Source of the DNA: a virus
DNA: 64,000 bases
IMG/VR virus record: IMGVR_UViG_3300036823_000120
Span: 1 to 64,000 of that record
Reading direction: 5' to 3' (one strand)
Below are positions 7,065-53,469 of the stretch, in pieces. The position numbers and the translations under genes were made by a program. Positions within the stretch are counted from its first letter, which is position 1. Each line of letters begins with the position of its first letter. The notes under the pieces are model-generated. The model was given only the letters and a program-made list of their open reading frames with translations, did not search any database and had not been told where the DNA came from.

Positions 7065-7065
7065 T

Positions 7066-28057: not shown

Positions 28058-28086
28058 ATATACTCCCTCCTTCGAGTTTGGACGAG

Positions 28087-28166
28087 TGCCGAGGGAAGGA
28101 TTTGAACCTTCACTTGAGTCCAAGTCTTCCATTTGGACGGCTGTGCTACCGTTACACTACCCCGAC
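28087..28166 (-). tRNA. tRNA-like RNA with non-canonical anticodon arm
   Basis: Acceptor GTCGGGG/CCTCGGC, D arm GTGT/GCAC, T arm GAAGG-TTCAAAT-CCTTC; middle GTCCAA-9nt-TTGGAC. Confidence 0.7.
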
Positions 28167-28678
28167 AAAGATGTAAGCTTCTTGCTTACCATTTTCGTGC
28201 AACTTCATTTTCAAAGACATCATCAGCTTCATTGTATTCATTGATAATTTCATCATCTTTGAGAATTTCAAAGATACGAATTAATCCACGAATAGCTTTT
28301 TTGAATTCATCTGGATTTACATAATCTCTACTATAGGCTGGAATATTTGTATCAGTTGGAACGAATAAGAACTTTTGCATCACATCTCCAATATTATATT
28401 ATCGTTGACTTTCTTGAATAAGCCACAAACCATTAAGATCTTGTATTTTAAAGCCTTTCTTTTGTTGAGGAAATAATACAAAGATCACACCATTACTTTC
28501 ATCAGCTTGAATACCACAAACCTCAAGAATTCCATCTTTTTCAGCTAGAAACTTGGCATTTGGACCAATATTTATGTGATTATCATTGTCATCAATCATA
28601 ATTTGCTTATTAACATCATTAGCTTTCTGACGTGTTAGATTGATTGGACACATAAATAGATATTTCATCGTTTTCTCC

Positions 28679-29377
28679 TTAGTTCTGTTTTATAAGTTCA
28701 CGCATAGCTTCTTGATTTCCATTCAATGTTTCTTGCTTATTGCGCAAGTTTTCAACTATCTGTTCATCGGTTAGATTTTCTATATTCACAATATGAACTT
28801 CACTGCAAGGATTACCTGTCATCAACTCAGGTTCTCCAAACGTAGTAAACTGGCTGCTGATGTTATTTTCCAACTTTACCTGTCGTTTCGGAACGCGGTA
28901 TATTGGATGTATTCCTGGTGCCACCGACCACCTATCTAAAACATGTCCTTGCTGTCTCTCTTTCTTCTTTTGCAAGTGACTAAAAAATGCTTTTCTCAGC
29001 TTTTTCCTGTATTGAATACGTATTTCATAATTATTTATCTTAAAGCTACCGAAAAGTACGTGCTTTTGTGAGCTGTAACTTTTATATCTTCCAACTATTA
29101 ATCGGCCATCATTTTTAAATTCAACAATCATATCTTGATTTTTAGTTGAAATCAAACCATAGACTTTCTTGGGTTTTAGTCTGCCATTCTTTCCACTATA
29201 CTGTGGAGTAACAACACTATAAATAACATAGCATCGTTCAATTAATTTAACAGTGGCACGTTGTTTCTTTGCTGCTACAGTACAACCTTGTTCATCAAGC
29301 CAATCAGCGAAAACAAGTCTTGTCGTCGTGCAGTAAGGCTTTTGTTTTATTTTATTAATCCAATTCCAGTAGTTCAT
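28679..29377 (-). CDS. TIGR02996-like domain protein
   Basis: IKQKPYCTTTRLVFADWLDEQG. Confidence 0.8.
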   Translation of the reverse strand: MNYWNWINKIKQKPYCTTTRLVFADWLDEQGCTVAAKKQRATVKLIERCYVIYSVVTPQYSGKNGRLKPKKVYGLISTKNQDMIVEFKNDGRLIVGRYKSYSSQKHVLFGSFKINNYEIRIQYRKKLRKAFFSHLQKKKERQQGHVLDRWSVAPGIHPIYRVPKRQVKLENNISSQFTTFGEPELMTGNPCSEVHIVNIENLTDEQIVENLRNKQETLNGNQEAMRELIKQN

Positions 29378-29650
29378 AATTGTCTCAAGATAAAGATTGG
29401 GAGCCTATGGGTGCCTAAATCCAAAAGTCTCCCAACCATATTTTAGTATGTTTCACGGTACATCTGGGGTCCAACATACAATTATAAGCATAAATATGCT
29501 TACAGGTAGTTACCTTTCTCTGAAGAGTTAGGTATTCTATTTAATCCTCCCCCAGCCCTCTACAACTGGCATGATTTGTGCTGTAAGCACTATTTACACA
29601 GTATTACTGCGTAACACCATAGGTCACGGTTGTAGACACGTTTTGACCAA

Positions 29651-29724
29651 AATCCCGGTGGCACTTGACTACCACACATTTATCAACAATTTGTTGATTT
29701 GCTCTACCCTTAAGCTACGGGATT
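29651..29724 (-). tRNA. Degenerate tRNA-like RNA (apparent AAT anticodon, no TTC loop)
   Basis: Perfect acceptor AATCCCG/CGGGATT; TAGCTTAAGGGTAGAGC D arm; ATCAA/TTGAT stem. Confidence 0.6.
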
Positions 29725-29861
29725 ACTTTGCTTTACTCTTTAACATTAAGTAAAGACTTAATTACTGACGGTTAATATCCTAGCTCTTCGAGGACCGTTA
29801 CCTCTCGACACCAACACCACTAAAGTAGTGTTCTAGTTGCTTCGCAGGCATCTAACGATAG

Positions 29862-29942
29862 TAGTTCTGGCGGTTTTTGATTGCCGCTTCATTATCACAG
29901 TATTTTAAACTGCGAAGTGCTTTACCTATAAGCTACAGAACT
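29862..29942 (-). tRNA. Degenerate tRNA-like RNA (apparent AAA anticodon, altered T loop)
   Basis: Acceptor AGTTCTG/CAGAACT; TAGCTTATAGGTAAAGC D arm; GCAGT-TTAAAAT-ACTGT. Confidence 0.6.
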
Positions 29943-30021
29943 AACAGTCACCCGTGTGACTACTAATGGCCGTTACAGATTACCTGTGTTGGAGACGGCC
30001 TTACGTCCAACCGGCAATATT

Positions 30022-30486
30022 TCATCCTTGTACTTCTTTAAGTTTTATGCTTTGAATAGGCTCATGAATGCCAACTTTACTTGCTACTGATCTAAATAAA
30101 TTTTCCTCAATCCAAAGTACACCATTTTCATATATTGAAAAATCTTGATAGTCTAAATTTTGATACCTATGATGAGAAAAGCATGCAGTAACGAGTTCTT
30201 CAATATAACCAATTCTAATTGGACTAGAATTGATAGAAATATTGCCATCTGTACGGACATAGAAAAGTCTATATACTTGACTCTTTACAGGAGCATAGAA
30301 TATTAATCCAACAATAAGCTTTTGGAATAGTATTGCTTTAGTAACATGTTTAGCCCATTCACGTTGACGTTGAGCAGCATTGCTATGCCCATTTTCGTCA
30401 AGCCAATCAGCAAAGACAAGACGACAAGTAGCATTTTTAGGATCATCCATAATTTTACGACAAAAATCCCAACGTGAAGCAAACAT
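30022..30486 (-). CDS. TIGR02996-like domain protein
   Basis: IMDDPKNATCRLVFADWLDENG; GAGG RBS. Confidence 0.8.
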   Translation of the reverse strand: MFASRWDFCRKIMDDPKNATCRLVFADWLDENGHSNAAQRQREWAKHVTKAILFQKLIVGLIFYAPVKSQVYRLFYVRTDGNISINSSPIRIGYIEELVTACFSHHRYQNLDYQDFSIYENGVLWIEENLFRSVASKVGIHEPIQSIKLKEVQG

Positions 30487-30626
30487 GTTATTACCTCTTT
30501 TCTTAAGCTCACGAAAATATCTTGGTGCATCTTTTAGCCACATATAGATCTTACGTTCCATGAATCCTACCAAGGCCAGGATCAATTTCAAATGTTACTT
30601 TCATTTTGATTCCTAAAAGGATGAAG

Positions 30627-30729
30627 TGGACACGTCGGGATCGAACCCGCACACGCGATTTAGTGCCATCTTACTTGCCAATGGTACTTACTTATTAGAT
30701 TTCTCATTGGATTAATCGCAATCGTGCCC
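30627..30729 (-). ncRNA. D-arm-less tRNA-like RNA with G3-U70 and A73 (tmRNA TLD-like)
   Basis: GGGCACG/CGTGTCC-A acceptor; GCGATT/AATCGC helix; CGGG-TTCGAT-CCCG T arm. Confidence 0.6.
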
Positions 30730-30868
30730 AAAAGAAGGAACCGGACATTATAAGCCACTGTCCGATTCCTCGCAAACTTTTAATTTTACATAACTATTAC
30801 TCCTCTCATATTAATAGACATAGTGTTTTATTTTAGTATAACGATACTAACCTAGTTCTAGGTTACAG

Positions 30869-30941
30869 TACGGCAAGTGGGAATCGAACCCAACTTACAT
30901 CGGCTTATAAGACCGAGCCACTTCCAAAGTGGTATTGCCGT
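30869..30941 (-). tRNA. tRNA-Ile(TAT)
   Basis: Complete cloverleaf; anticodon loop CT-TAT-AA; T arm TGGG-TTCGATT-CCCA. Confidence 0.85.
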
Positions 30942-31806
30942 AACAAGCGATTCTAGTTTTTAGTGGTTCTTCTCAGTTTGCTACGCTGAGACACTCACTG
31001 TCTCCTATAATTGAGCAACAATTTAACCCTTTCGGATCAAAACAGCAATATATTTTTCTAAGGCTTTAACTTCCTCTTCATCATCAAGCGTACCAAACTC
31101 CGTTTCATAATCAAATCTAATGTCGCCCAAATACTGTAAAGCATCTTGCTTATCTTCACATTCGGAGATGGTTACATGAACTTGCTTTATAAGGAAGTTA
31201 TTTTGCCTTTCAGTCAAAACAATAATTCTTCCTTCTTGGTAAGTTCGTATTGCCTCTGCCAATTCAGGCAGAGACATAGAGTAGATTGTTTTCGGGCCAG
31301 CAAAGTTTGCTGCAACCTTATCAGCAGCTTCTTCGCTTGGATAAAGCTCAAGTCTCCAATCTTCAGTACCAAGTTTCATCAGTAAAACGTGATTCAAAGC
31401 TTTCTCGCTTTCATGTAACTTGTGTTTTCATATGGAGCAAAGGCACCACAATCATCAGGAAAGTCATCGAAGACTTTTTCATAATGTGTTGGTGGCGGTG
31501 GAGCAGTGTCAACCGCCAAGAAGTAGCTATAAGCATCATGAAAATCTTTATCAAGATGAGTGAACATTCGTCCACTTCTTCGATAAGTGTTTGGCATGAT
31601 TCTGGCTTTAAAGCCAATCTTTTCAAGGATCTTAAGAACTTGTTTTGAGGCGTAGTAAGGAGTCATGTTAGGTGTTATGATAACAACGATTTCAACTGGA
31701 TCGTCATCATCGTAACAAATAAAATAATTTGGTCCTCTCCATACAGGCTCCCTGTACCACTTCTTGTCTTTGCAAAAAACTGTCGTGTGCGTTAAGCTCA
31801 TTTGTT

Positions 31807-32334
31807 TCACCGAACAAAGATGTGCATGTAGCGTTTGCCATCTCCACCCATCGCCCATGCAGCACCAGCGTAGGTGTAGTTATCGTATACGTCGCAACTC
31901 ATCCAACCATAAGAAGCAGGATAAGCAGCACAACCAGCAGAGGAGGCATAACTACCAGAAGGAAGAAATTGAAAATCATTGCCCGTATGCCCAAACATTT
32001 GCCTTGAGGCACGAAAGCTTGCACAGGATTGGGCGGCTTGAGTAAGACCGGCGTCGAATATGTACGGTCGCAACCCATGCATCGCCCTCTTCGCATTGAC
32101 TTCTGATAGAGCTTCATTCCCTCCCTCCGTAGGCTGTGAGTTGAAACTCACGGGTTGTGAGTTGAAACTCACGGGTTGTGAGTTGAAACTCACGGGTTGA
32201 TAAGCCGGCTGTTGAAAATTACTTTGGCCTTGAACCGGATAATACTGAACCCGATTCCTACGAAGCAGTGGACCACTGTAAGCATCCACACTGGCCAAAA
32301 GCACAACCAAGCTACTCAGGATCAAACGCATCAT
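31807..32334 (-). CDS. Secreted CAP/SCP-domain-like protein with QPVSFNS repeats
   Basis: Signal peptide; VNAKRAMHGLRPY..D..LTQAAQ..A....FGH. Confidence 0.75.
   Translation of the reverse strand: MMRLILSSLVVLLASVDAYSGPLLRRNRVQYYPVQGQSNFQQPAYQPVSFNSQPVSFNSQPVSFNSQPTEGGNEALSEVNAKRAMHGLRPYIFDAGLTQAAQSCASFRASRQMFGHTGNDFQFLPSGSYASSAGCAAYPASYGWMSCDVYDNYTYAGAAWAMGGDGKRYMHIFVR
32136..32198. repeat. Three 21-bp tandem units, each holding palindrome GTGAGTT-GA-AACTCAC
   Basis: Palindromes at 32136, 32157, 32178 separated by GGGTT. Confidence 0.95.
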
Positions 32335-32653
32335 CCATCTCCCTTGACAAGTGAACACTTGACTGCACATTGCATCTAGCACAGAACAACACCAAGTTAT
32401 CCTGACTATTTGTGCCACCTTTACAAAGAGGTGTCACATGCTCTATTGTGGCTCTAGCCACTTTTTCAGTACGATCAGGTGATAAAAGGTAATAGTTACT
32501 GTAACCACCAATCACCCAACCTAATAAGAGCTTATCACGATCTAGTGCAATTTTCACTTGACAAAGATGACAACACTCATTTTGTTTGGCCATAAGCATA
32601 CGTTGTATTTGATACTTACGTCTGCTATGTATCTTCTTTCTCTCTTTACTCAT
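32312..32653 (-). CDS. HNH endonuclease (McrA-like)
   Basis: CHLC..ATIEHVTPLCKGGTNSQDNLVLFCARCN. Confidence 0.9.
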   Translation of the reverse strand: MSKERKKIHSRRKYQIQRMLMAKQNECCHLCQVKIALDRDKLLLGWVIGGYSNYYLLSPDRTEKVARATIEHVTPLCKGGTNSQDNLVLFCARCNVQSSVHLSREMDDAFDPE

Positions 32654-32783
32654 TAATCTACTTTCAGTAAGTAACCAATAATAAATCCTATTGGCAAAAG
32701 TATAAGTAAGAAGATATACATTGGCAGATTATATTTTGAATATTCAATCAACCAATAATACAACTTGTCGATATTATTTATGA

Positions 32784-33791
32784 TCATGTTCGATATGTGG
32801 CTCCTATCGGGCCTGTTAAAAGATGCTTATTGACAATGCATCGTGGAATACGAATTCTTTTCTTCAAAGAATTTCCAACTCCATAACGTTGCATACGATA
32901 GTATCCTCGTCTTGCATGTGCAGGAAGCTTACGTCCAGTATGCGTGCCAAGTTCACTTACATACTGATCTTCAGTGATAACTCGAACAAGTGGAGTTTCA
33001 CGTTGAAGATCATATATAATTGGTTGGGCCAAAAGTTCTATCTTATTATTCTTAGTATGCTTGGTCTTTTTCTGGCACCATTTCACAAGCTTTGCATACT
33101 GGTTTGGTGCTTCCGGACCACACTTCTTGATTCCAACTTCATCAAGAAGTAAACAGTAATTCAATACTGCTCGTCGAACTTGTGCTTCACAAAGATACTC
33201 TTGTTCTGTCGTTGGTAATCTATCAAATTTATCATCAATAGAATAATCAGACTGACACCACTCTTCAAGTTCATCTTTCTCGTTGCCAGCCCACCAGCTT
33301 TTAAGTGAGTGAAACGGTTCTTTGTCAAAGACAATACTATGGATGAAGAAATTTTGCTTCTTATCGTGATGAAGCCACGCAAAAGCAGGCTTTGCATCAC
33401 CACAAATTTTCTTTGCAGAATACTCTGCTGGTATTTCAATTACAATAGTCTCAAAAGGCATATTATAATCTTCACAAGCTAGAGTAAGCTGCATTTCTTC
33501 CAACATCTCTAACTGATAGCTTGTTGGTCGAAAGACTTTCGGTCCATTTCCAAAGATTTCGGCTGTAAGAAAGCCTTCAATCTTCATCAAAAAATCCATA
33601 TTTGCCATAGTCAATAAGATTCGACCAGCATCATCACTAACCTTAGTTAGTGCTTCATCATTAAGCAGTACAGAAGTTTTCTTTCCTTCAACTTTCAGGT
33701 TCAATACCTTATGTTGACCAATTTCAACATAAGGTTTGATGTCAATTTTCATTTTCTGAAGTAATTCGTTGAGCGTCATTGTTAAGCTCAC
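32784..33791 (-). CDS. Conserved phage hypothetical protein
   Basis: 335-aa ORF; C-terminal HARRGYYRMQRYG..K.I.IP..V motif. Confidence 0.7.
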   Translation of the reverse strand: MSLTMTLNELLQKMKIDIKPYVEIGQHKVLNLKVEGKKTSVLLNDEALTKVSDDAGRILLTMANMDFLMKIEGFLTAEIFGNGPKVFRPTSYQLEMLEEMQLTLACEDYNMPFETIVIEIPAEYSAKKICGDAKPAFAWLHHDKKQNFFIHSIVFDKEPFHSLKSWWAGNEKDELEEWCQSDYSIDDKFDRLPTTEQEYLCEAQVRRAVLNYCLLLDEVGIKKCGPEAPNQYAKLVKWCQKKTKHTKNNKIELLAQPIIYDLQRETPLVRVITEDQYVSELGTHTGRKLPAHARRGYYRMQRYGVGNSLKKRIRIPRCIVNKHLLTGPIGATYRT

Positions 33792-33827
33792 TAGTTAAAG
33801 CGTTTCATGTTTTAGCTTTTGCCACAA

Positions 33828-33968
33828 TACCTCCGGTCGGACTCGAACCGACAGTTTCTCACAAGACCCTCACAACAAGTGAGTAGCTTTACAGGTGCCA
33901 TGCGTCCAACGCTCGTGAGAGACACTTGGGTCTCGACCAAGCTGCTATACCCTTTTGCATACGGAGGT
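33828..33968 (-). tRNA. tRNA-Leu(GAG)-like RNA with 72-nt branched variable arm (141 nt)
   Basis: Acceptor ACCTCCG/CGGAGGT-A; CTTGG-TCGAGAC-CCAAG; GTCGG-TTCGAGT-CCGAC. Confidence 0.8.
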
Positions 33969-34216
33969 GTAGGTTCTTAACGTGGAAGATCATTTTCGCT
34001 AATATGAGTACTCCATTTTGCTTTTACTATTTCAAGTGTTTTAATTCTTTTTTGAAGTATTCTCACTGAAAAATTCTCATCCGCTTGTACTCTACAAGCT
34101 TCTAGCGTTGCTATAAAAGCGTCTAAGATATCTTCCTCTCCGTAGCCTTCGTCGAACATTGATTTAAATTTATCCACTAATGTAATAAGTGCCATTTTAA
34201 TGCCCTTATGTTGGAA

Positions 34217-34291
34217 TGTCCCTGGTGGGATTTGAACCCACACTAAACAGATTTTAAGTCTGTTGCCTGCTACCAATTGGGCTACAGGGAC
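34217..34291 (-). tRNA. tRNA-Leu(TAA), short variable loop
   Basis: Complete cloverleaf; ACAGA-CTTAAAA-TCTGT; GTGGG-TTCAAAT-CCCAC. Confidence 0.9.
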
Positions 34292-34462
34292 GAATGACAG
34301 ACTACCACCGTTATTTCTTCGGTCTGTCAGCGAATTTTCGAGCGTCATTCCCTTGTTATCGGGATGCAATAGTTCTACCATTAAGTATTGCACTGAACTA
34401 TTTAGCGACAGAGACAGTGGCTTTACTCTTGCGAAGCGGTGCTTCAAACAATTCTTCCCAGG

Positions 34463-35140
34463 TCATGCAACATACCTCTTAGTTCCAATTTGGACTGTGC
34501 AACCTTTGGCAAGCTTTTTACTACTTAACAATGTCGAGCTAACTTTAAAATTTGTATCACGAATGCCGCGAAAGGCAATGCTTTTCAGCGAAAACATTGG
34601 CTTCATCATTTTAATCACATCTACTATGTTTGATTCTTGACGGAACCAAGCATAATATTGTACATCAAGATGCCAAAGCTTTTGAAGCCGCCAGTTTGAA
34701 AAAACATCAAACAATTGTGCTCGTTCGGCTCGACTTGCTCGTAAGATCATATGTCGAATCGGTTGAGCAGATAGAATATTTGGACGTTGACTAAGATATT
34801 CAGGTGTTATATCTATCGTGGTATAAGCATCACCTAAGCGGCCATTAAAATAACACAAGTTTCGCTTTTCTTCAAGCTGATTTGGAGATTCTTGAGCATA
34901 ATTTTTGTTCCAATTATGAATAATCATATCCAATGCTGAAACAATATTTGGTAAAAGCTCACCAGTAGAGAACGTTCTAATGATCGTTTTAGTATTGATC
35001 CACTGCCGCAAAATAGACGATAGTTCGTGGTCGCGTGACTCGTCTGATTCGTCCAGACAATCACAGTAGATGAGGATGCCCGTGTCATCTCCATCGTTAA
35101 TCGAGACTTTCCAATCAGGCAACAATGTCGGCATGTCCAT
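34463..35140 (-). CDS. Divergent TIGR02996-like protein with LRR-like C-terminus
   Basis: INDGDDTGILIYCDCLDE..ILRQ; LQKLWHLDV..LKSIAF; GGAG RBS. Confidence 0.6.
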   Translation of the reverse strand: MDMPTLLPDWKVSINDGDDTGILIYCDCLDESDESRDHELSSILRQWINTKTIIRTFSTGELLPNIVSALDMIIHNWNKNYAQESPNQLEEKRNLCYFNGRLGDAYTTIDITPEYLSQRPNILSAQPIRHMILRASRAERAQLFDVFSNWRLQKLWHLDVQYYAWFRQESNIVDVIKMMKPMFSLKSIAFRGIRDTNFKVSSTLLSSKKLAKGCTVQIGTKRYVA

Positions 35141-35229
35141 AGCTCCGGTGTGTACTGAATCATAGCACACATACAGACAGATGGTAGCCCAGTTCACTCG
35201 ATTTTTATTAAAGTACAAACGTTAGAATG

Positions 35230-36192
35230 TCACTCACATAGTGAGTCAAAAAGCTTATCTTCATCTGTAACAGGGCCATATCGCATTTCCATTTGAGCAT
35301 CTAAAGCTTCACAACGTGCCATACTAGTTTCCTTAGACATTTCATCAAAAATGTATTCACTTTGTATTCCATACCAAGCAGCATGTGCCCGTTTAAATAG
35401 ATCATATTGAAAATCTACATTAACTAAAGCTCTGTGTTGAGCAATACGAATATCTCTACTCCCCATCCAATCTTTTGTGCAACATATTTCATCAATTGCA
35501 ACTACAAATTTACTACCAACTTCATTGCCAAGAAGCCAGGCATAGATACTCAACTGAGTTGCCCACTTCTTTTCAACAGAATCAAGAGTTTCTTTTACAT
35601 TAATTCGATAGCCTTCATGGTCCATCGGAAAAGCGTCTTTATGTGCATTACGATCTGGAAGACAGCGAATATAGCCTCTTTTTGGACTATAATTTGTCTT
35701 GGCATAAAAGCCTGTTACTTTCCAATCAAAAATGATACGTACACCATTAATTGTTAAAAAGTAAATATCAGGCTTTCCAAGCATTGGTACTGCACCGATA
35801 CCCTTTGATACGCATTCAACATAACCTTCAATTGATGTCTCAAACTTAGGCTTACCAAGACAGCCTTCTAAGTCTTTGAGAACGTCAAGTAATCCTCCAT
35901 GCTTTTGGTACAAGTCCCATACAATCTTACCATCAATCAAAGCTTGATCACGGTTATGGGGTTCAACTTGAGCTTCAAACAAAGTTGTGAACTCAAACTT
36001 TGGATCACGACCGACAGTTTTCTCATGGAGGTAACTCTTTGCATAAGCATCAAAAGCAGAGCCAACTGACATTGGACCAGTTTGTGGATCACGTTTCTTA
36101 CGTTTTTCACATAAGTATTCCAAATAAAAAGTTTCTCGATTACTTTCCCAAAGAGCAAGACTAGTAGGACTTAAATAATTAAGCTTACGCAT
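35230..36192 (-). CDS. PD-(D/E)XK superfamily exonuclease
   Basis: YLSPTSL, GSAFD, LGKPD, IFDWKVT, QLSIYA. Confidence 0.8.
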   Translation of the reverse strand: MRKLNYLSPTSLALWESNRETFYLEYLCEKRKKRDPQTGPMSVGSAFDAYAKSYLHEKTVGRDPKFEFTTLFEAQVEPHNRDQALIDGKIVWDLYQKHGGLLDVLKDLEGCLGKPKFETSIEGYVECVSKGIGAVPMLGKPDIYFLTINGVRIIFDWKVTGFYAKTNYSPKRGYIRCLPDRNAHKDAFPMDHEGYRINVKETLDSVEKKWATQLSIYAWLLGNEVGSKFVVAIDEICCTKDWMGSRDIRIAQHRALVNVDFQYDLFKRAHAAWYGIQSEYIFDEMSKETSMARCEALDAQMEMRYGPVTDEDKLFDSLCE

Positions 36193-39525: not shown

Positions 39526-39546
39526 TTTAGCCTCATTTTGGAATTA

Positions 39547-42500
39547 TCAACTAATCGGCATTTCACAGACTTCGCCTTCACAAAACTTCGTATCAATTCC
39601 GTCTGAGCCACAAAAGCCTGACCAATCAATTTTTTGTATGGCCGCTAATCTAGCTTTGTACTCTTCTTCAGATATACCTTCCTCTGGCATTTGTTCATAT
39701 ACACCTTTTGGTGTATGAGGTAATAATGAACAAGCTTTAATTAGTGGAGCAAAAGCTGATAAGACTTTTTCAAGAATATCCTCCTCGTGATTAGGATCAA
39801 ACTTATAGACTCTCATTTCCGTAGTTTTAGTCCAATAGTTTTCACGGAACGTGACTTTGATTGAATTATTTTCAAAGTCAGCTTGTCCAGCAGCAATATT
39901 GGTCCAAGGATATTCATCTTTAAAGTATTCAATCAATTCTTTGACAAATTGGCCTTCTTTCCTAATATGCATGATAAGCTTCCACTTAGGCCGGAAATAT
40001 AGTGTATTAGAAACACTATTATCTGCCCATTCTCTCTGAACTGTGGCAAGATTAACCGCTTGCTCCCAGAGACTTATCGTATCTGCTGGAGGCGTTGGTC
40101 CTTGAAGAGTGGGATATTCATAAATTAGAGTTCCATTTGGATCAGTTACATCTGGTTCATATGGGATACATGCTTTATCAAGGATTGGACACATAGGATG
40201 GTTACGTGCAACACGAGTGCGACGCAACGTGTAATCGAATGTTGGATAACCAATACCAGCCGTTCTTCCTGCAAGCTTTGGAGTAGTACCCATTTAATCC
40301 CATAATTTTCATTATAGGCTGGACTATATCTTTATCTTTTCTAATTCACTATGACGATATCTAAAACATGAAGCATATTTTTCTACAAAACGATTATATT
40401 TTTTCTTTCCACAAATAGTTAGACGCCAAAAACTTTGGTGTTTTTCTGTAACATCAAACTTATGAATATGTGGATTAATCCAATCTTGTTGTAAAATATA
40501 TTGAGCTTTACAAATAATACTAAAATTAGTATTACATAGTTGAATTATAGGTGAAGTAGTCCAACTATGGTTAGTAAAGCTACCTTCTGCTTCATATATT
40601 CCAGCTAACCAATCTCGTGAATAAGAGTAAGATACCTCGCGTGTAGTCTCTGAGGATCGCCATTGATTGTGCTTTTCAACAATTTCTAATTCTTTGTCGT
40701 TATGCAGCGAGTATCTAGTTCTTTGCATTCGACTATTAACAAATTGTTGAAAACATTCTAATCTGACTTTATCACATTCAATGAGTGATTTAAAGTAATC
40801 TACAAATAAGCTTATAGCTACATTTGAACAAATACTTAAATCATAACAGTCAATTTTACCTGTTCTTATACTTTTAGTTTTAGAATAGTTAATAAGCTTT
40901 TGTTGTAAAATCTTTTCGCAAAGCTCAATAGCAATTTTATTAGTATTAGATATACTAATTTTTGGTTCAAAGAAAAAGCCTACATTATTGCCTCTTCTTT
41001 GTCTTTCTCTAAAACTAAAAGAACCCTCACCTTCAAAAAAGCCAGAAAACCAATGGATGTCCTGCGGGTTGTCCATTTTTATCTCTTGTTTTGTTACTTA
41101 TAAGTAACAAGAGGTCTTGGAGTTTCACGCATATAGCGAGGAGTACACTAATACATTTCTGTATTAGGCGGCAGTACATTTACCGGGTTTGCGACATTAT
41201 CCAAAAGTTTCGCTTTTGGGTCGGACTATATCACATTCCGCAAAGCATAAAAAATTTCATGCTGTCTTTTAGTATATGGCTCTTTGATATTTTGAAGCAA
41301 TCTAAGATTAACAAATTCTTTTAACAAAGAAGATTTTAATTTATACTTTTTTGTTTGGAATTCATTAATAATCTGAAAAAATCTTTGTACTCTTTTATAA
41401 CCATGAATAGTTATTACTTTATATGGACTATGTTTTAGTGGTATATAAGATGATATATGCCAACTAAGTCCTAAAGAATACAAAGTTTTCACTGTCTTGT
41501 CAATAATTTTAGTATTAGTAGAGCATACAGTTATTTCAGGATTATAATTGACTGTATTATTTCTACTCATATGACAAGAAATATGAAAACTACCTTCAGC
41601 TTCTAAAATACCAATAAGCCACCAAAAGTCTGCGGAACACTCGCATGTAGTCTCTGAGGACTCAAGATGAAATTGTCGGCAATAAAGTTTGGTCTTTAGT
41701 TCCTCTAAAAAACACAAACATTTAATTCTACCATTAATGGCTAGATCATATTCTCGTTTTCTTTTTCCTCTTTGAGTCGAAGAGATTGAAACAGATATAC
41801 CAAAAGAAGATATTATATCTTCACATTGATGTATTAGATCAATTTCAGTATTACTGATTCGTAATCTATTTTTATCAAAGGAACCTTCGCCATCAAGTAT
41901 GCCAACAAGCCAACTTGTTGCCTGCTGATTATCCATTTTAAGCCTTTATTACATAAGAAGTAGACTTAATTAAAAGAGGATTTTCCAGCAAATAGCGAGT
42001 TTCTCACTAATACATTACTGTATTAGGCCACCAATTTCTTAATGGTTGTCTTACGAATTGCTTCAGGAACACCAGCTTCAGCATTTGCTTCTTGATTGAT
42101 TTTTGTAACTTTCTCATATCCCTTTCTCATATAAGAAGTTACTTTATTCAATCCAACATCATATACCCAACCAGTCCAATCAATAATACCAATGCCAATT
42201 CTTCGGTTTCTAGCAACAACTCGATTTGTTTCCTCTCTATGAGTAGGAAGTAAGCTTACACTGCTACAATACATTGTAGCATACTCAACTGCTTCATACC
42301 ATTGTTGGACACCATTACAACGAGTTGGCAAAGTTTCTGAAACGTTGCACAATTCCTTATCTTCGAGTGGAATTTCTCCGCCGCTATTGTTACTCATGCT
42401 TAATACATGGGAGTGGTCATTTCTGCCACTCTCTGCATGTTACCATGCAGGCCGGACTATATCATCATCCTTGTAGGATGTCTCGCGTGTAGTCTCTGAG

Positions 42501-44124
42501 GTTCCAGATTATCGCTTAAGTTGACGTAACAAATGGTATGTTTGCAAGTCTAAAACTGCATCCATTTGACCATATAGTGTAGCAAGACGCTTTGTAACAT
42601 ACTCAAATAGAATTGTAGCTTCTTCATTTTTAGCTACGATATATTTGAGTAATATTTTCAAAGCTTTTTCAACACGCATCACACCATTTATTTCAACGCG
42701 CTTCGCAGCGCGTTGATTAGAGGCACGAGTTGCATCATAAATATGATATGCTAGTCCTAGCTTTTGCAGGATAAAACATATATTTTCTATGATGATTTTA
42801 TTTGTGTTGACAATTTTAATCCCTACATTGTAGGAACCTTTGCTACCTGGACTCATTGAAAAGCAACCTTCACCATCAAGAATACCACTTAACCAACCAA
42901 GCTCAAAATCTGTTACCTGCGGATTGTCCATTGCAATATACTTGGGATTTTTGCATTAGAAGCACCCAAGCCTTTAGGTACTTTCCAGCATATAGCGAGA
43001 TTGTTCACTGATATATTACTATATCAGGCCGCTAGGATTAACGGATTCAGTCCACTTGCCTTATCTTTTCTAACAGGAATTGGCTTACCAATTCGCCCAA
43101 AAGGAAAGTTTTTCAGGTTCAAGATTCCTGGCTCTCCTCTAACTGTTATACGCTTTGCTACTTCTCCTAACTGTTCAAAGTCTTCTGGATTATATAGAAC
43201 CGCTGTATTGTTAGACATCCAGCCCCATTCTTGGCGTTCAGGATTCATGTCATAGTCTTTAAGATTCATAAAAACAGGATCATGAATATCGCCCTTCATA
43301 AGTTCTGCACTACGTCTAACGTTACCAGCAACGACGCAAACTCCGAGTATATTACCTATGTCTGCTTTTAATCTGACTTCGTCAATTGATTCAGATTCAA
43401 AAAGCATTTCCATATTTTCGTGTAATCTTTTCAAAGGGACTGGGCCAGAAGCTTTTCCGCCAAACCCTTTAATTAGTAGACCTTCTTCACGAAGTTTGTC
43501 GTATTTGAAAATAGGCTTTCGTCTATTTGGCTGAGTATAAGCTTCGACAAGAAGCTTTACACTATCAGCCCAACCTTCTCGTGAATCTGGAATTTCAAAG
43601 ATATAAGTTCCAACAGGCTTATATCTAATTAATCCAGTTCGTTTTGGTTCAAATCCAACACCAACACCAAGCATCAAAGCATCCATCATCCAATTCAAAT
43701 CATTGGCGAGAGTATCATTATCGCCCAAAACGCAATATCCGCAATTGTTAAGAGCCATAGAGCCACGTTCATATATGAACGATGTACCCATAGCCCATAG
43801 ACCCCGACCACCAGGAAACCAATGCATATTGAACAAACTGATTGCCATTCTATAGGCATAAGCTTGCCAGTATTCTTCGTCCCATCTGATATAGTTTCGA
43901 GCATAAAAGTCTTTTCTAATCGAGAAAGTTCCATTAATTACCCTTGTTACAACATCAGCCCAATTTTCCTGTCCACCATTTGTTTTTATGCGACTATATG
44001 TCCTAAAGAAAACTAATTCACCATAGCCGTCATAACCAAAATCTGGCTTCATAAGCTGAAGTCTTGAAGCAAAATCAAGACTTAGTGAGAAGTGTTCATT
44101 TACATACTTAGTGGGGACCACCAT
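39547..44124 (-). CDS. nrdJ: Class II (B12-dependent) ribonucleotide reductase; exons 44124-43041, 42381-42042, 41191-41182, 40290-39547; 725 aa spliced
   Basis: PGGRGLW, NNCG, AGNVRRSA; splicing restores NPCGEIPL and TTIKPGGTTPKL; exon lengths sum to 2178 nt in frame. Confidence 0.92.
40291..41181 (-). mobile_element. Group I intron 3 of nrdJ
   Basis: Exon ends CGGU pairing IGS GCCG; terminal G; CAGAGACTA and GATATAGTCC core elements. Confidence 0.9.
40324..41076 (-). CDS. Two-domain LAGLIDADG homing endonuclease
   Basis: WFSGFFEGEGSF and WLAGIYEAEGSF. Confidence 0.9.
   Translation of the reverse strand: MDNPQDIHWFSGFFEGEGSFSFRERQRRGNNVGFFFEPKISISNTNKIAIELCEKILQQKLINYSKTKSIRTGKIDCYDLSICSNVAISLFVDYFKSLIECDKVRLECFQQFVNSRMQRTRYSLHNDKELEIVEKHNQWRSSETTREVSYSYSRDWLAGIYEAEGSFTNHSWTTSPIIQLCNTNFSIICKAQYILQQDWINPHIHKFDVTEKHQSFWRLTICGKKKYNRFVEKYASCFRYRHSELEKIKI
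41192..42041 (-). mobile_element. Group I intron 2 of nrdJ
   Basis: Exon ends CCAU pairing IGS GUGG; terminal G; same core elements. Confidence 0.9.
41226..41936 (-). CDS. Two-domain LAGLIDADG homing endonuclease
   Basis: WLVGILDGEGSF and WLIGILEAEGSF. Confidence 0.9.
   Translation of the reverse strand: MDNQQATSWLVGILDGEGSFDKNRLRISNTEIDLIHQCEDIISSFGISVSISSTQRGKRKREYDLAINGRIKCLCFLEELKTKLYCRQFHLESSETTCECSADFWWLIGILEAEGSFHISCHMSRNNTVNYNPEITVCSTNTKIIDKTVKTLYSLGLSWHISSYIPLKHSPYKVITIHGYKRVQRFFQIINEFQTKKYKLKSSLLKEFVNLRLLQNIKEPYTKRQHEIFYALRNVI
42382..43040 (-). mobile_element. Group I intron 1 of nrdJ, within the catalytic Cys codon
   Basis: Exon ends CCGU pairing IGS GCGG; terminal G; T|GC rebuilds Cys of NPCGE. 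Confidence 0.9.
42509..42931 (-). CDS. Single-domain LAGLIDADG homing endonuclease
   Basis: WLSGILDGEGCF. Confidence 0.9.
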   Translation of the reverse strand: MDNPQVTDFELGWLSGILDGEGCFSMSPGSKGSYNVGIKIVNTNKIIIENICFILQKLGLAYHIYDATRASNQRAAKRVEINGVMRVEKALKILLKYIVAKNEEATILFEYVTKRLATLYGQMDAVLDLQTYHLLRQLKR

Positions 44125-45902: not shown

Positions 45903-46247
45903 TCAGCTAACATTGTTTTCAACTGACTTAGTTTCATTTCTTCTTACCTGAATAATTAAAATAAGCAAATCATCTTTTGATACACCAGTGTAATTTCTAA
46001 TTCCTAGTTGAGCAGCTAAAGCTCGTAGCTGACGAATAGTTTTATCGCAAACTTCATTACGAAGTACATTATCCATCCATTCTCTGACGTATTCAAGATC
46101 AGCATCTTGAATTGCTCGCTCTAAGCGGGGATTATTTGAATCCAATCTCAGACATTGAGTGAATGATACTGAGTGAACTATTCTCTCTAAAGCTCTAAGA
46201 TCATTGAATCTCGATCTTATTCGATATTGTACATCAGCTATATTCAT
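45903..46247 (-). CDS. Protein with C-terminal Rho-N-like helix-extension-helix domain
   Basis: KTIRQLRALAAQLGIRNYTGVSKDDLL. Confidence 0.65.
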   Translation of the reverse strand: MNIADVQYRIRSRFNDLRALERIVHSVSFTQCLRLDSNNPRLERAIQDADLEYVREWMDNVLRNEVCDKTIRQLRALAAQLGIRNYTGVSKDDLLILIIQVRRNETKSVENNVS

Positions 46248-46696
46248 AGAGTGTTAATGCATGCATATGCTCCAAAGTGCTTAATAGCAGCTTCGTTATA
46301 AGCTTTTGCTGCATCCTCCTCTTTATCAAAGTAACCTAACCTCATAATTTTGTTATTAACAAAAATATAAGAATCCCATTTCCTATATAATTTGTTATAA
46401 CTTACTCCTTTATATTTGGAGCTACAGTGTGTTTGTCTTTTAGACTTATTCTTTTCATTGTCGCTTCGTGTTGCAGCTCGCAAATTAAATTTTTGATTAT
46501 TTAACTTATTACGATCAATATGATCTATAATTTGAAAATTTAATTTGACTGTTAAAAGCTTATGCATATAGGTATTATCGCCATTGTCTCTGGCATACCC
46601 ATTACATAAGTACCAAGTTCTTAAGGCAAAAAGAAGCCAATCTTCATCATCTACGAGTATAAGCAAATCTGAATTTATTAAGCTTATTGTCTTCAT
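46244..46696 (-). CDS. HNH-AP2 homing endonuclease
   Basis: DHIDRNKLNNQKFNLR; SKYKGV; LGYF..E..AAKAYN. Confidence 0.9.
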   Translation of the reverse strand: MKTISLINSDLLILVDDEDWLLFALRTWYLCNGYARDNGDNTYMHKLLTVKLNFQIIDHIDRNKLNNQKFNLRAATRSDNEKNKSKRQTHCSSKYKGVSYNKLYRKWDSYIFVNNKIMRLGYFDKEEDAAKAYNEAAIKHFGAYACINTL

Positions 46697-49059: not shown

Positions 49060-49216
49060 AGCTCATCCTTCGTGAACAAGTGAACAAAATATGCAAAACA
49101 CGCGAGATTCTCGCAGTTTTGATGCCACCAATCATCTTCATTAAGGACAAACCAATCTACTTCATAGATCATACACCATTCAATAAGCCTATTAATTTCA
49201 ACAGGCTCAGTTAAGA

Positions 49217-50143
49217 TTATTCACTTTTATCACCAACTAATGCCTTACTTACCCAAGAAGGCATAATAAAATCTTTACCTTCTTTCCTAGCTGCTGCTTG
49301 AACTTCATTAAGCAATTCAATTGTACTAATCTTTGCGGTACACCATGCTGCAAATCGAGTTGCTAAACACGCACCAAGAGTATCATAAATGAGACCACCC
49401 ATTTCAACTATCTCTGGTCCCTTTCGCTCACGAGTTTTCATTGCGTCGCTACTTCGTTGAATAGAAGGAACAACGCTGAGAGATTCTCCTTTTTCGCGCT
49501 TTTCTTTGACTTTCTTCACAAATTCAATTTGTTGTTCAACTTTTCGAAGACTCGCACAGTGTTTGATTTGTGCTTGAGTAAGCAAACCAGCAGCGGCAAC
49601 TGCTTGAATTTCCTTCGGCAAACTCAAAAGAGCTTTACGAATTTGCACCCATCCACGAGAAGTACCAGTGAGATCGGCAACTTCAACTTCATTGAAGTGA
49701 ATATCAAAGTAATATTTAATTGCATAAGCTTCTTGAAGAATATTTAATTGCTTACGATGCAAATTCTCTCTTAGGTTCTGTGTTCGTGCGGCTGTTTCAT
49801 CAAGACCTTCTTCAATGAAACATGGAATCTTTGAATGCTTCTCAGCAACGACAGGATCAGCATCTAAGGCGTTAATTTCAAATGCCGTAAAACGTCTATG
49901 TCCTGCCACAATACGGTATTTCTTACCTGATATAGCATCGTGTGGTTGTACAGTAATTGGAGTATCAAGCTTTCGGTCCTTGATATCTCGTGCAAGATCA
50001 AGAACATCGATTGGGCTTATGTTTCCACGACAATTGAAGTTTTCATCAAGAAAAATATCTTCAATAGGAATTAAAAATACTTTGTAGCCAGTTATAGGAT
50101 CAATATCAACTGTTTCTTGATTATTTGCAATTGCTATAGACAT
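49217..50143 (-). CDS. ParB-family protein (N-domain plus HTH)
   Basis: PITVQP..YRIVAGHRRF; ENLHRKQLNILQEA; EVADLTGTSRGWV. Confidence 0.9.
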   Translation of the reverse strand: MSIAIANNQETVDIDPITGYKVFLIPIEDIFLDENFNCRGNISPIDVLDLARDIKDRKLDTPITVQPHDAISGKKYRIVAGHRRFTAFEINALDADPVVAEKHSKIPCFIEEGLDETAARTQNLRENLHRKQLNILQEAYAIKYYFDIHFNEVEVADLTGTSRGWVQIRKALLSLPKEIQAVAAAGLLTQAQIKHCASLRKVEQQIEFVKKVKEKREKGESLSVVPSIQRSSDAMKTRERKGPEIVEMGGLIYDTLGACLATRFAAWCTAKISTIELLNEVQAAARKEGKDFIMPSWVSKALVGDKSE

Positions 50144-50297
50144 TATTTTGGTCCTTGCTTATTCAGAGCTAAAAGCTCCTTGTATATTAACTCATGTTCT
50201 ACGATTAACTCATAAGGTTTCACTATACCTTGGGAGTTTCTTTGACTTTTTAGTAATATAAATTTTTCAATCTCATTTATTTGATTCATTAAGACTC

Positions 50298-52931
50298 CTA
50301 GTTTCTAGAATCACTTGTTACTCCCATTTCATGGGCTTTTGCAGCTTCTTGTTGAGCTTGTTTCATTTCTTCTAGTACCAAACCCATACTCAAACTTTGC
50401 AAATCACGTTTGCGTTTGAGATTTTTTAATACATAAGCATCAGTTGGAAGATGGAGCAAATCAATTATAGTAGCTCCTCTTTCTACTGACATACCTGCCC
50501 TATGTATGCGATCTTCTGATTGCAATCTAGACTCACCATTGAAATCATTGCTGAAATAAATGATGGCTTTTGATGCCGTCAGTGTCAGGCCCATTCCCGC
50601 TGATCCAGCGTGCCCAACAAAAGCTATCTTTTGATCGTATTGCTTAGGATTCTGAAAGACTTTCAAGAATTCTACGTTATCTTTTGGCAAGAAGTTACCA
50701 TATGGCACCCATCCACGTCCGTCCACACGCATCACTTGCCAACCAAGCTTAGTCACATGGTCACTAACTCGATCAATTGTTCCTGTGAAAGCTCCATAGA
50801 TAACAATTCTATTCTCATCTTCAAAATCATCTGAGAGAAGTTCTGTAAGAGTATCAAATTTTGGACTATCGACTGTTTTTACTTCTCTCTTAATAACATT
50901 AGTTGTTCCGCGGCCTTCGCAAGCAGGACACTTAATTTTTTCATTAAGATCGTTATCGAAAAGCTCTCTATTGCCTTTACAAGTTGTACAAGTTGCAGTA
51001 GATTCGACAGTTTCAATATATTGAAAGCCATCTGATAACTCACGAAGCTTTGTAAGAGCTTCAATTGCATTGCGACAACCAACTTGTATCAAACTAGCCG
51101 CACGAATCATCGGCAGACTTGGCTTTATATTAATTTCTCGATATACCTTATCAGGTAGATCAAGACAATCTTTCTTGTGTTGAACTAATACAAGTCCACT
51201 CATTCGCCGATAAAGTTGACTAATTTCATCTTTCAAAGCTATATATTCATGGAAGTTTTCTTTGTCTTCTTTGGCATAATGATTAGCATGAGAACTAAGC
51301 TTACCACATTTATTACAGATTGCTTGACCACCATCTCGCCATGCAATGAATTTCGGGAACCGACCACCAGTGATATCACCAACGTATTCAGTAACAGCTA
51401 ATCGTTCCTTGAACTTGTTGACATCACCTTCAATCAAGAAGCCTGGACAAGCAGTTTCACATTGCCAATACCAATCTACAGGGGACTTGGGAGCGGGAGA
51501 ACCACTCATAAGTACAATGTATGCATCGTGTCCATAGTTATTACGCATACTTTCAGCAACATGAAAAGCTGATTGTGAGCGTTGAGCAGTTGGTGTCTTT
51601 AATTTTGAAGATTCATCGAATATAATTCCACGAGGTGGCATTTTCCGTGGAATCCAATTTTCAACTGTTTTCTTCAATTCATCATAAGTCATAAATATTG
51701 GACGTATGAAAGATTTCCAATTCCAAAACTCAAGACGAACACTTGCAATTGATGATTTTGTTCCAATGTACCACCAATCTGCGATACCACTTCGTTCCAT
51801 TGCCTCTATTGAGGCAAGAGTCTTTCCACAATTATGTACTACAATACCATTTGCGACAAAATTTCTATAAGGATCATCACAAATAACATCATAGACAAAT
51901 AATTCTCCATTATTTTCAATACTTATAATTTTATCTTTATGTGGTATAAATTGACATTTCTCAGTATGTAGATTTACATAATTTGTTTGGCCATGTAATT
52001 TTGCATGCTTACTACTTGAACTTAATAGTTCCAAGTTTTCAATTTTATTATCATTTTTAATTTCATTTTTATGATGAACTATCTCATTTTCTTTAATATA
52101 TCGTCCAAGATGTTCTTCCATAATTAAAATGTGTTCATATACTCCACCTGTAGACCATCTTGGATGCTTGTTTTTTAAGCCTCCAACTCTAATATAGCCA
52201 TCTTTATCTTTCCATTTACCATTAACTAAAATTTCATCACCAATATTTAGCTTTTCTGCTGAAATATAAGTATTATTATTTACAGCAATTTCGTGATCTA
52301 AAGTTACACAAATTTCATAACCTAATTTTGTTTTTATTTTTAAAGTAGACTTTTTACCTTTGCTTAAGACATTTTTAATTTTATTTAACTTTAATATCCC
52401 AGCACAATTACTTCGAATATAAGTTTCTATTCCTAAATCCCAGCATCTGCCTTTTAAATTATGAAATTTCTCAAAAAGATTTTTTAGTTTTATCTCAAAT
52501 CCTTTTCCAGCTCTATTTACATGCACGAGTGCTTCACCATCAACGCATCCCATTTCCGCAGCTAGTATACATTGCTTACGTAGCAAAATATGACCAATCT
52601 CATATTTTTGATGCGTATATACAGGTCGTTGAAAAGTTAGCTTATCAACAAATGATTCAAGTGAAGCGTCGTATCGAGAAAAAGGATTCTTACCTTCTAA
52701 GTGTTCAATACGAAATTCATTTCGTCGTGACTTATTAACGCGCCAAACTTTCATTGGATTATCTTCGTCTCTACCAAGCCATTTTGAACCTTGCATCACT
52801 TTCAATTTATCTTTGAATTCGAAAGCTGAACTAATATAATAATACTTTGAATCTTCATAAATAGTAGCTGGATGACGAAACTGCTTTCCTTCAAACTTAG
52901 TTTGTCTTTCAGCTATAAAATTAATTGCCAT
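50298..52931 (-). CDS. SNF2-like SF2 helicase with intein
   Basis: EMG|CGKT Walker A after splicing; FDESS; MSGSP; GLTLT; QSEDRIHR. Confidence 0.9.
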   Translation of the reverse strand: MAINFIAERQTKFEGKQFRHPATIYEDSKYYYISSAFEFKDKLKVMQGSKWLGRDEDNPMKVWRVNKSRRNEFRIEHLEGKNPFSRYDASLESFVDKLTFQRPVYTHQKYEIGHILLRKQCILAAEMGCVDGEALVHVNRAGKGFEIKLKNLFEKFHNLKGRCWDLGIETYIRSNCAGILKLNKIKNVLSKGKKSTLKIKTKLGYEICVTLDHEIAVNNNTYISAEKLNIGDEILVNGKWKDKDGYIRVGGLKNKHPRWSTGGVYEHILIMEEHLGRYIKENEIVHHKNEIKNDNKIENLELLSSSSKHAKLHGQTNYVNLHTEKCQFIPHKDKIISIENNGELFVYDVICDDPYRNFVANGIVVHNCGKTLASIEAMERSGIADWWYIGTKSSIASVRLEFWNWKSFIRPIFMTYDELKKTVENWIPRKMPPRGIIFDESSKLKTPTAQRSQSAFHVAESMRNNYGHDAYIVLMSGSPAPKSPVDWYWQCETACPGFLIEGDVNKFKERLAVTEYVGDITGGRFPKFIAWRDGGQAICNKCGKLSSHANHYAKEDKENFHEYIALKDEISQLYRRMSGLVLVQHKKDCLDLPDKVYREINIKPSLPMIRAASLIQVGCRNAIEALTKLRELSDGFQYIETVESTATCTTCKGNRELFDNDLNEKIKCPACEGRGTTNVIKREVKTVDSPKFDTLTELLSDDFEDENRIVIYGAFTGTIDRVSDHVTKLGWQVMRVDGRGWVPYGNFLPKDNVEFLKVFQNPKQYDQKIAFVGHAGSAGMGLTLTASKAIIYFSNDFNGESRLQSEDRIHRAGMSVERGATIIDLLHLPTDAYVLKNLKRKRDLQSLSMGLVLEEMKQAQQEAAKAHEMGVTSDSRN
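51831..52547 (-). mobile_element. 239-aa intein carrying an HNH endonuclease
   Basis: Starts CVDGEA; TLDH block B; ends NFVANGIVVHN|C; internal VHHKNEIKNDNKIENL. Confidence 0.92.
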
Positions 52932-53399
52932 AACTTCCTCAAGCTAATACAAACGTTTTATCTTGTAAATGCTTAATCGTTACATTTAGAAAAATACCAT
53001 ATACATTATTAAAATGAGTATACAGTAAATTTGCTAATACTCTTAATTCTCTTGGTGTATCTTCAGTAAGATATTTTGTTACAAATGTTAAATATTCTTC
53101 AATTGATCCTGTAATAAAGCCTTTTGAGTCTCTATCACAATAGGCTGTTGTAATTTTTAAGTAACCAGTGTTTATAAGTAAGTCAACAACATCTTGAGGC
53201 AATTCAAAATAAAAAGTTACAAATATCCACTGATAAGATGGATTTAAGTTAAATAGGCTCCTAGCCAACATAGACAATTTGTCAAGTGGCTTGGAGCTTT
53301 TCTTATCAATCTCAGTAAGTTCAATACACTTTGAAAGTATATTAAAATCAATTTGTGATTGAATCACAGATTGTAATTTATACATTATTTACCTCCAAA

Positions 53400-53469
53400 C
53401 ACCCCGATAGAGAGTCGAACTCTATTAACCAAACTTTGTAAAAGATGGTTAAATACCATTATTCGGAGC
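53400..53469 (-). ncRNA. D-arm-less tRNA-like element
   Basis: GCTCCGA/TCGGGGT acceptor; TAGAG-TTCGACT-CTCTA T arm; TTAACCA/TGGTTAA stem. Confidence 0.5.

Follow-up and report, generated by a model that had tools for sequence, protein, structure and literature searches.

Six non-decoding tRNA-shaped elements in the gene gaps of an uncharacterised phage and their possible role as RNA processing signals

The initial 64 kb of the virus genome IMGVR_UViG_3300036823_000120 (94,582 bp in total, estimated completeness 100%), hereafter the window, carry six elements in the shape of transfer RNAs (tRNAs), which we call el1 to el6. The six elements are real, none of them is able to decode normally, and they are of the same kind as the 'tRNA-like stable RNAs' described in bacteriophages T5 and T4, by a kinship of architecture and setting and not of descent. 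As to what they do, we favour, at a probability of about 45%, the reading that they punctuate a polycistronic transcript as cutting signals for ribonuclease (RNase) P and RNase Z of the host, a punctuation that would also release small stable RNAs. All six lie on the minus strand, the coding strand of the region, within gaps between open reading frames (ORFs):

28087-28166, minus strand: el1, with canonical acceptor, D and T arms and an over-long anticodon arm (Rfam RF00005, 41.8 bits; fold).
29651-29724, minus strand: el2, a cloverleaf with a 7-bp acceptor and a consensus D arm (minimum free energy (MFE) fold, z = -4.0; scan for D arm plus acceptor).
29862-29942, minus strand: el3, with an acceptor, a consensus D arm and the 7-nt loop UUAAAAU (Rfam, 26.9 bits; fold, z = -3.0).
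30627-30729, minus strand: el4, with an acceptor and a degenerate T arm, a long helix replacing the D and anticodon arms (sequence and fold).
53400-53470, minus strand: el5, with an 8-bp acceptor and a perfect T arm around a core made of one long hairpin (strict scan; fold, z = -3.0).
33828-33968, minus strand: el6, a shell derived from tRNA-Leu whose variable region bears a branched insert of 72 nt (strict scan and fold).

In the MFE folds of all six, a terminal stem of 7-8 bp closes two to four internal arms, and the altered arm is a different one in each. The anticodon arm of el1 runs to 24 nt where 15 are expected, with a 6-bp stem (GUCCAA/UUGGAC) and a 9-nt loop. In el2 a 7-bp stem with a 3-nt loop seals the 'anticodon' hairpin, and the T loop departs from the canonical form; the MFE fold of el3 is a perfect cloverleaf, yet its T arm consists of a 4-bp stem and a 10-nt loop that is not a T loop. 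Both have near-consensus D arms (UAGCUUAAGGGUAGAGCA in el2, UAGCUUAUAGGUAAAGCA in el3) and both are without a T loop. The 7-8 bp acceptor of el4 (GGGCACG/CGUGUCC, then A) includes G3:U70 and A73, its core helix is GCGAUU/AAUCGC, there is no D arm, and the T arm is imperfect (CGGG/CCCG with the 6-nt loop UUCGAU and a bulge). No D arm is present either in el5, where the T arm reads UAGAG UUCGACU CUCUA. Finally, el6 has 7/7 Watson-Crick pairs in its acceptor, A73, a T arm that is perfect and a D stem of class II type (3 bp, GGG loop); its anticodon-like arm has a 5-bp stem and the 7-nt loop UCGAGAC, with C at position 33. The first-pass annotation of this DNA, made from the letters alone, had described the odd anticodon arm of el1, the lost T loops of el2 and el3, the missing D arms of el4 and el5 and the giant arm of el6, all accurately. 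It had also stated that none of the elements encodes CCA, and direct reading found no CCA after any of the six.

When the elements are held against the form of a working anticodon loop (5-bp stem, 7-nt loop, U33), only el3 has the 7-nt loop and U33, but it is the one without a T loop. The others depart through the 9-nt loop on a lengthened arm (el1), the 3-nt loop (el2), the absence of the arm (el4 and el5) or C33 (el6). Scores from ARAGORN and Rfam, named in the first-pass annotation among the ways to check these shapes, single out el1, which alone reaches the gathering threshold of 29 bits for Rfam RF00005; el1 received no call from ARAGORN at default settings. The 26.9 bits of el3 (E = 7.9e-5 in the genome) fall slightly under that threshold, with a more permissive scoring, and el2, el4, el5 and el6 gave no Rfam match at E <= 10. 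An ARAGORN call appears for el6 only when introns are allowed, and the tRNA-Val with a 57-nt intron within the anticodon stem that results was rejected as an artefact of this option.

The reality of the elements is carried by their sequence and folds and by module scans set against shuffled DNA, which together uphold all six at the positions that the first-pass annotation gave them. In a strict scan, a module had to have a 5-bp T stem (2 or more G-C pairs), the loop TTCRANN and a directly adjacent acceptor, paired 7/7, with no fewer than 5 Watson-Crick and 3 G-C pairs. It found five modules in the genome, among them tRNA-Leu, el1, el5 and el6, where 400 dinucleotide-preserving shuffles averaged 0.015. 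The scan for a D arm plus acceptor gave four matches (tRNA-Ile, el1, el2 and el3) where 0.62 were expected. All matches of the module scans lie on the coding strand and between ORFs. In 251 kb from 14 related phage contigs the strict scan returned a single match, a true tRNA, and the scan is thus not over-calling in DNA of this type. That the shapes are under selection rather than in decay, as had been proposed from the fully paired acceptor stems, is plausible, because el2 and el3 keep 20-24 stem pairs though their content of G and C (GC) is close to that of the genome (~37%).

Five of the elements and two canonical tRNAs sit inside 28.0-34.3 kb, all on the minus strand, and el5 stands apart at 53.4 kb, so that the elements are spread across 25 kb of an early or accessory gene array. 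The minus strand holds almost every gene between 6 kb and 56 kb. The tRNA-like elements outnumber the true tRNAs by 6:2, and the region that bears them is unusually rich in non-coding DNA, whose other spacers fold into hairpins with no tRNA-like shape. A search of the element region with Rfam gave no match for GOLLD, ROOL, YrlA, skipping-rope, ribozymes or transfer-messenger RNA (tmRNA).

The likeness to the coliphage RNAs extends to size, fold and neighbourhood. In T5 (NC_005859), RNA1 (144 nt) and RNA2 (125 nt) are annotated 'tRNA-like stable RNA with unknown functions' and RNA3 (73 nt) 'putative tRNA-like RNA'; the three lie on the tRNA strand among tRNAs, small ORFs and HNH endonucleases. 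RNA1 and RNA2 fold like el1, el4, el5 and el6: an acceptor closes the structure, the T arm is canonical and the centre has been enlarged or rewritten. RNA3 forms a degenerate cloverleaf of 73 nt and resembles el2 and el3, and the sizes fall in a similar range of 70-145 nt. T5 differs in having a dense tRNA cluster (12 in a 4.5-kb stretch), whereas here only two tRNAs accompany elements scattered over 25 kb, and in that the insert of el6 is in the variable region and not in the anticodon arm. In T4, rnaC (species 1, 139 nt) and rnaD (species 2, 119 nt) are encoded directly behind tRNAs. RNAC resembles the elements: its T arm is perfect (CCGGG UUCGAAU CCCGG), its ends pair in a closing stem and its interior holds long hairpins; folding of RNAD revealed no tRNA-like fold. 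Expression is established for the T4 RNAs and is a prediction for the elements described here. Sequence homology to the T4 and T5 RNAs was not found: blastn of positions 27500-35000 against 50,697 phage records matches canonical tRNA only.

Other systems offer partial comparisons. In plant mitochondrial t-elements and in the mascRNA of MALAT1, a tRNA-like fold embedded in a longer RNA attracts RNase P and RNase Z, sets the flanking ends and frees a small tRNA-like RNA; both are eukaryotic or organellar, and the likeness lies in the proposed mode of working only. The topology of el4 is that of the tRNA-like domain of tmRNA, including its reduced form in jakobid mitochondria (PMC3590771), likewise without a D arm. 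The shared order runs from the acceptor (G3:U70, A73) through 3 nt, a long helix and the T arm to the 3' acceptor strand. In contrast with tmRNA, el4 has a 6-nt T loop and a bulged stem, ARAGORN and Rfam give it no tmRNA call, and no convincing tag reading frame was found in its 55-nt core. The Y RNAs of the YrlA type are a further case of tRNA-mimicking modules in non-coding RNAs, phages included (PMC4201824); the present elements differ in giving no Rfam match to YrlA, and no TROVE/Ro60 gene was found in the phage.

The reading of the elements as processing signals draws on what stands next to them. A stable hairpin, here at least 5 contiguous bp at -5 kcal/mol or below and ending 0-6 nt ahead of the acceptor stem, is found upstream of four of the six (el1, el3, el4 and el5) and of tRNA-Leu, with a weaker one at el2, and such a hairpin accompanies 12% of random minus-strand positions. 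Three of these hairpins are the following:

28173-28189, minus strand: a 6-bp hairpin that overlaps the stop codon of the upstream ORF and ends 6 nt before el1.
30735-30771, minus strand: a hairpin of 13 bp with UUUU after it, its end 5 nt short of el4 (-19.4 kcal/mol).
53474-53503, minus strand: a hairpin of 10-13 bp between the upstream stop codon and el5 (-19.4 kcal/mol).

On the other side, el1, el4 and el5 are followed by a Shine-Dalgarno sequence and a start codon within 5-25 nt, and only 5 nt separate the end of el5 from the Shine-Dalgarno sequence of the ORF at 52939-53385. The spacers of el1 and el5 are in this way fully occupied by a stop codon, a hairpin, the element, a Shine-Dalgarno sequence and a start codon, and that of el4 is similar. 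As a separate observation, hairpins with a GAGGAA...UUCCUY stem occur at 30735-30771, 53474-53503 and 55134-55158 (5 matches on both strands, 0.38 expected), two of the three immediately upstream of el4 and el5. A promoter considered ahead of el4 (30747-30775) was dismissed: it lies within the upstream hairpin, and promoter-like matches are overall at chance level.

RNase P, RNase Z and the CCA-adding enzyme need the acceptor and the T arm, and RNase P needs little beyond these two helices stacked upon each other. This pair of arms is preserved in el1, el5 and el6 and largely in el4. We therefore picture the following course only as a model, in which expression, cleavage by RNase P and RNase Z, CCA addition and the effect on the stability of messenger RNA (mRNA) are all inferred. 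A long minus-strand transcript would fold locally into shapes resembling precursor tRNAs, and the RNase P of the host would cleave at the 5' end (+1) of each acceptor stem. The 3' end would be finished by RNase Z or by exonucleases, and then by the CCA-adding enzyme. The outcome would be a small stable RNA of tRNA shape, set free, and a polycistronic mRNA severed between cistrons. The upstream piece would be left with a protective hairpin at its 3' end, a hairpin in this place being a standard shield against 3' exonucleases, and the downstream piece would begin with a short leader, a few nucleotides ahead of its ribosome-binding site.

The first-pass annotation had offered processing signals that punctuate phage mRNA as one of its explanations. 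Strand, placement in gaps, acceptor and T arm in four of six, the hairpins, the Shine-Dalgarno sequences and the precedent of T4 and T5 speak for it; el2 and el3 fit it least. Several observations weigh on the other side. Bacterial RNase P uses the T loop, and el2 and el3 are poor candidates for this mechanism because theirs is lost. The enrichment of hairpins is only suggestive, the control positions being mostly coding. The T4 and T5 precedents bring no function with them; the roles of RNAC and RNAD were unknown according to a review (PMC3014915) and still so in an omics study of 2022 (PMC9697503). The related phages retain none of the elements in place. These relatives comprise the 92.7-kb genome G001, 13 further IMG/VR contigs and 9 metagenome contigs found through profile-guided scans, and none holds a syntenic copy of any of the six. 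el5 is absent from 14 related replication modules. There is thus no evidence for long-term conservation of single elements.

The comparison spans considerable distances. The conserved replication proteins of the relatives are 33-53% identical to those of the window phage, and G001, whose core is collinear, shares proteins with 27-59% identity (DNA polymerase 53%, primase 47%). The surroundings of the elements are hypervariable slots of orphan genes, and the orphan ORFs that flank them are absent from the relatives, with the sole exception of the ORF at 34463-35218, which has a homologue in the contig L010. What recurs in the relatives is the type of element. G001 carries at 85865-85934 a tRNA-like element whose T arm and acceptor are perfect and whose central hairpin has 7 bp and 11 nt, immediately before a gene (Rfam 21 bits, z = -3.1). 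In L010, an 88-nt element at 2087-2174 has an acceptor, two hairpins foreign to tRNA and a T arm, and a second one at 4878-4949 (plus strand; Rfam 42 bits) is a non-decoding variant with a 6-nt anticodon loop, given the anticodon 'ac' by ARAGORN. L009 has a 45-nt minihelix of acceptor and T arm (7908-7952), and L016 a tRNA-like of ~67 nt (~9241-9307) with 6/7 acceptor and 4/5 T-arm pairs around a short core unlike that of a tRNA. In the slot upstream of the homologue of ORF 32784-33791, L014 has two canonical tRNAs, L010, L016 and L009 have tRNA-likes and the window has both. As the type recurs and the copies shift between relatives, the clade continues to form or retain such elements even as single copies come and go.

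Two further candidates in G001 were set aside. An order of tRNA-Ile, ORF and tRNA-like element shared with the window proved to be false synteny, the ORFs being unrelated, and a 141-nt candidate (L001, 14066-14206) is weak, with z = -0.88, an AT-rich acceptor that is missing from the MFE fold and no alignment with el6. G001 also has, at L018 10590-10622 (minus strand), an intergenic and perfect 15-bp inverted repeat made of the T-arm sequence GTGGGTTCGAT and its complement, which may be a tRNA-derived hairpin.

The origin of one element can be traced further. The terminal 26 nt of el6 (33828-33853), comprising the T arm, the 3' acceptor strand and A73, are identical to those of tRNA-Leu(CAA) genes of Bacteroidota, and el6 is on this ground a remodelled tRNA-Leu. 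An exact search for the 21-nt core of this 3' end in bacteria, with one genome per species, gave 26 matches. Bacteroidota tRNA-Leu(CAA) accounts for 21 of them; the others are three alphaproteobacterial tRNA-Leu(CAA), two Streptomyces tRNA-Ile(UAU) and one Acidimicrobiaceae locus without a tRNA call. Against the same 3' strand, the 5' strand ACCUCCG of el6 forms seven Watson-Crick pairs, whereas the GCCUUUG of Bacteroidota forms three G:U pairs. The matching Bacteroidota genes are likewise without an encoded CCA; its absence from the phage elements is consequently uninformative, and may be no more than the practice of the host. The 26-nt identity suggests a host in Bacteroidota, or a tRNA captured from one, as a lead and not a proof. 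The acceptor and T arm of el1, searched with up to three mismatches in 301 genomes of the bacterial class to which one genome with an el6-matching tRNA-Leu belongs (G002, locus L056), were absent save for one weak exception.

A different hint comes from the neighbours of el2 and el3, which lie together in a 644-nt non-coding stretch. The two minus-strand ORFs that border it, at 30022-30561 and 28679-29377, start with a TIGR02996 domain (E = 2e-10 and 7e-7). This domain is typical of paralogous families of Planctomycetes and Myxobacteria, and its presence conflicts with the Bacteroidota hint from el6.

The two canonical tRNAs, which the first-pass annotation had placed beside the elements, were recovered by ARAGORN and by Rfam:

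30868-30941, minus strand: tRNA-Ile(UAU), canonical (Rfam 46 bits).
34217-34291, minus strand: a canonical tRNA of 75 nt with the anticodon UAA (Rfam 67 bits).

The second, given above as tRNA-Leu, is a class I molecule without a long variable arm; bacterial tRNA-Leu belongs to class II. It is 79-88% identical to annotated 'tRNA-Leu' of many unrelated phages, for example Felixounavirus and cyanophages.

The genome encodes a family A DNA polymerase, a helicase, a primase, a ribonucleotide reductase and ParB-like genes. Searches of phage collections found no similar cultured phage, by DNA or by DNA polymerase, and the lineage is therefore uncharacterised. Against the phage collection, blastn and tblastn gave tRNA matches and otherwise nothing, and scans of IMG/VR for close relatives with single proteins and DNA patterns gave no match. 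Three separate window ORFs at 39547-44124 (minus strand) correspond to one unbroken ribonucleotide reductase ORF of G001 (6447-8648; 51-59% identity). Downstream of el1 and of the ORF at 27599-28057, the unit is ended by a strong intrinsic terminator at 27559-27582 (minus strand), with a 9-bp stem (8 G-C pairs) and a U run; its weak P26-like Rfam match reflects the terminator shape alone.

Immediately downstream of el6, the ORF at 32784-33791 (minus strand) encodes a protein of 331/335 amino acids with the database label PF26125 and 69 homologues, the closest of which (P0002) is 64% identical. Several relatives have tRNAs or tRNA-likes upstream of the homologue. The top match of its AlphaFold model (predicted local distance difference test, pLDDT, 82) is the anti-CRISPR AcrVA2 (7ci2_A), with a probability of 0.97 and E = 3.6e-3 and a template modelling (TM) score of only 0.35-0.42.

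Other explanations have to be weighed against RNase P and RNase Z punctuation. The elements could be decaying pseudogenes of a formerly larger tRNA set, struck by indels or recombination and without function. The turnover in the tRNA slot, where canonical tRNAs in one relative stand against tRNA-likes in three others and both in the window, agrees with such a history, as do the lack of any element retained at a syntenic site, the near-average GC of el2, el3 and el5, the damaged look of the el4 T arm with its 6-nt loop and bulge, and the unusually non-coding region. Decay does not sit well with stems that are fully paired throughout all elements, including the 20-24 pairs each of the AT-rich el2 and el3, while loops and arm lengths depart far from the tRNA consensus. 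Nor would it account for an el6 acceptor made wholly of Watson-Crick pairs where its bacterial counterpart has G:U, or for the adjacent hairpins and the tight packing of stop codon, hairpin, element and Shine-Dalgarno sequence at el1 and el5, which suggest integration into gene expression. On balance we hold decay to be unlikely. An origin as attP-type or recombination scars, in which the tRNA-like stretches would be copies of host tRNA 3' ends that served in integration or remained after cassette exchange, would fit the 26-base identity of el6 with a tRNA-Leu(CAA) 3' end and the orphan, hypervariable surroundings. No tyrosine or serine recombinase was found in the genome (no match to PF00589 or PF00239), which makes this origin improbable for a phage without integrase, and the elements also carry a 5' acceptor strand and internal arms that an att core does not need; we accord it hardly any weight.

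There are also two functional alternatives. As decoys or antidotes, the released RNAs may bind and neutralise the tRNA-targeting nucleases of the host (PrrC, PARIS, Schlafen or VapC type) or a nuclease borne by the phage, with no productive cleavage of their own. Phage tRNAs do counter tRNA-targeting defences (PMC10264068), the elements are diverse, with the decoding region altered differently in each, and they lie in an accessory early region beside the gene whose model matches AcrVA2. This explanation, also advanced in the first-pass annotation, found no backing in the gene content: genes for nucleases, HEPN proteins, RNA ligase, RtcB, Ro60 or a CCA-adding enzyme were not found in the phage or beside the elements, and the flanking ORFs matched nothing in Pfam or PADLOC and gave no nuclease match (RNase, HEPN or PIN) in these or in NCBIfam. 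Moreover, the part that is missing is the anticodon loop, the very target of such nucleases, and no element is conserved in relatives, so that decoys appear rather improbable to us. Some elements might instead be unusual working adaptors: el6 as a tRNA-Leu(GAG), el3 with the anticodon AAA and el4 as an alanine-accepting domain of the tmRNA type. el6 retains A73 and G18/G19, its T arm is perfect, its loop has 7 nt, and its acceptor and T arm equal those of real tRNA-Leu; el3 has a 7-nt loop with U33; and el4 shows G3:U70 and A73, the identity set of alanyl-tRNA synthetase. On the opposite side stand C33 and a 72-nt branched arm about three times the size of any variable arm known to us in el6, the lack of a T loop in el3 and, in el4, a defective T arm, no tmRNA call from ARAGORN or Rfam and no evident tag frame, while el1, el2 and el5 have no usable anticodon loop. 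We regard working adaptors as very unlikely.

The punctuation reading is the one that we continue to prefer. The order of hairpin, tRNA-like element and ribosome-binding site recurs and makes a concrete and testable model of mRNA punctuation by RNase P and RNase Z. In T4 and T5, tRNA-like stable RNAs have been known for decades with no function assigned, and the present phage adds a case from an uncharacterised lineage, whose host is possibly in Bacteroidota. Should this class of tRNA-like elements prove general, phage annotation pipelines would be systematically overlooking a common type of RNA gene.

A bolder idea, which we put forward with little confidence, is that the elements, once excised by the tRNA machinery of the host, act in trans as a toolkit of tRNA-shaped scaffolds that bind host proteins recognising tRNA, such as immune tRNases, synthetases and modification enzymes. 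In such a toolkit el6 may be a tRNA-Leu shell with a 72-nt cargo, an Ala-type RNA of acceptor and T arm (G3:U70) may be chargeable and the others may present sealed or lengthened anticodon arms. If true, this would be an RNA-based class of counter-defence or host takeover that would also account for T4 RNAC and RNAD and T5 RNA1-3.

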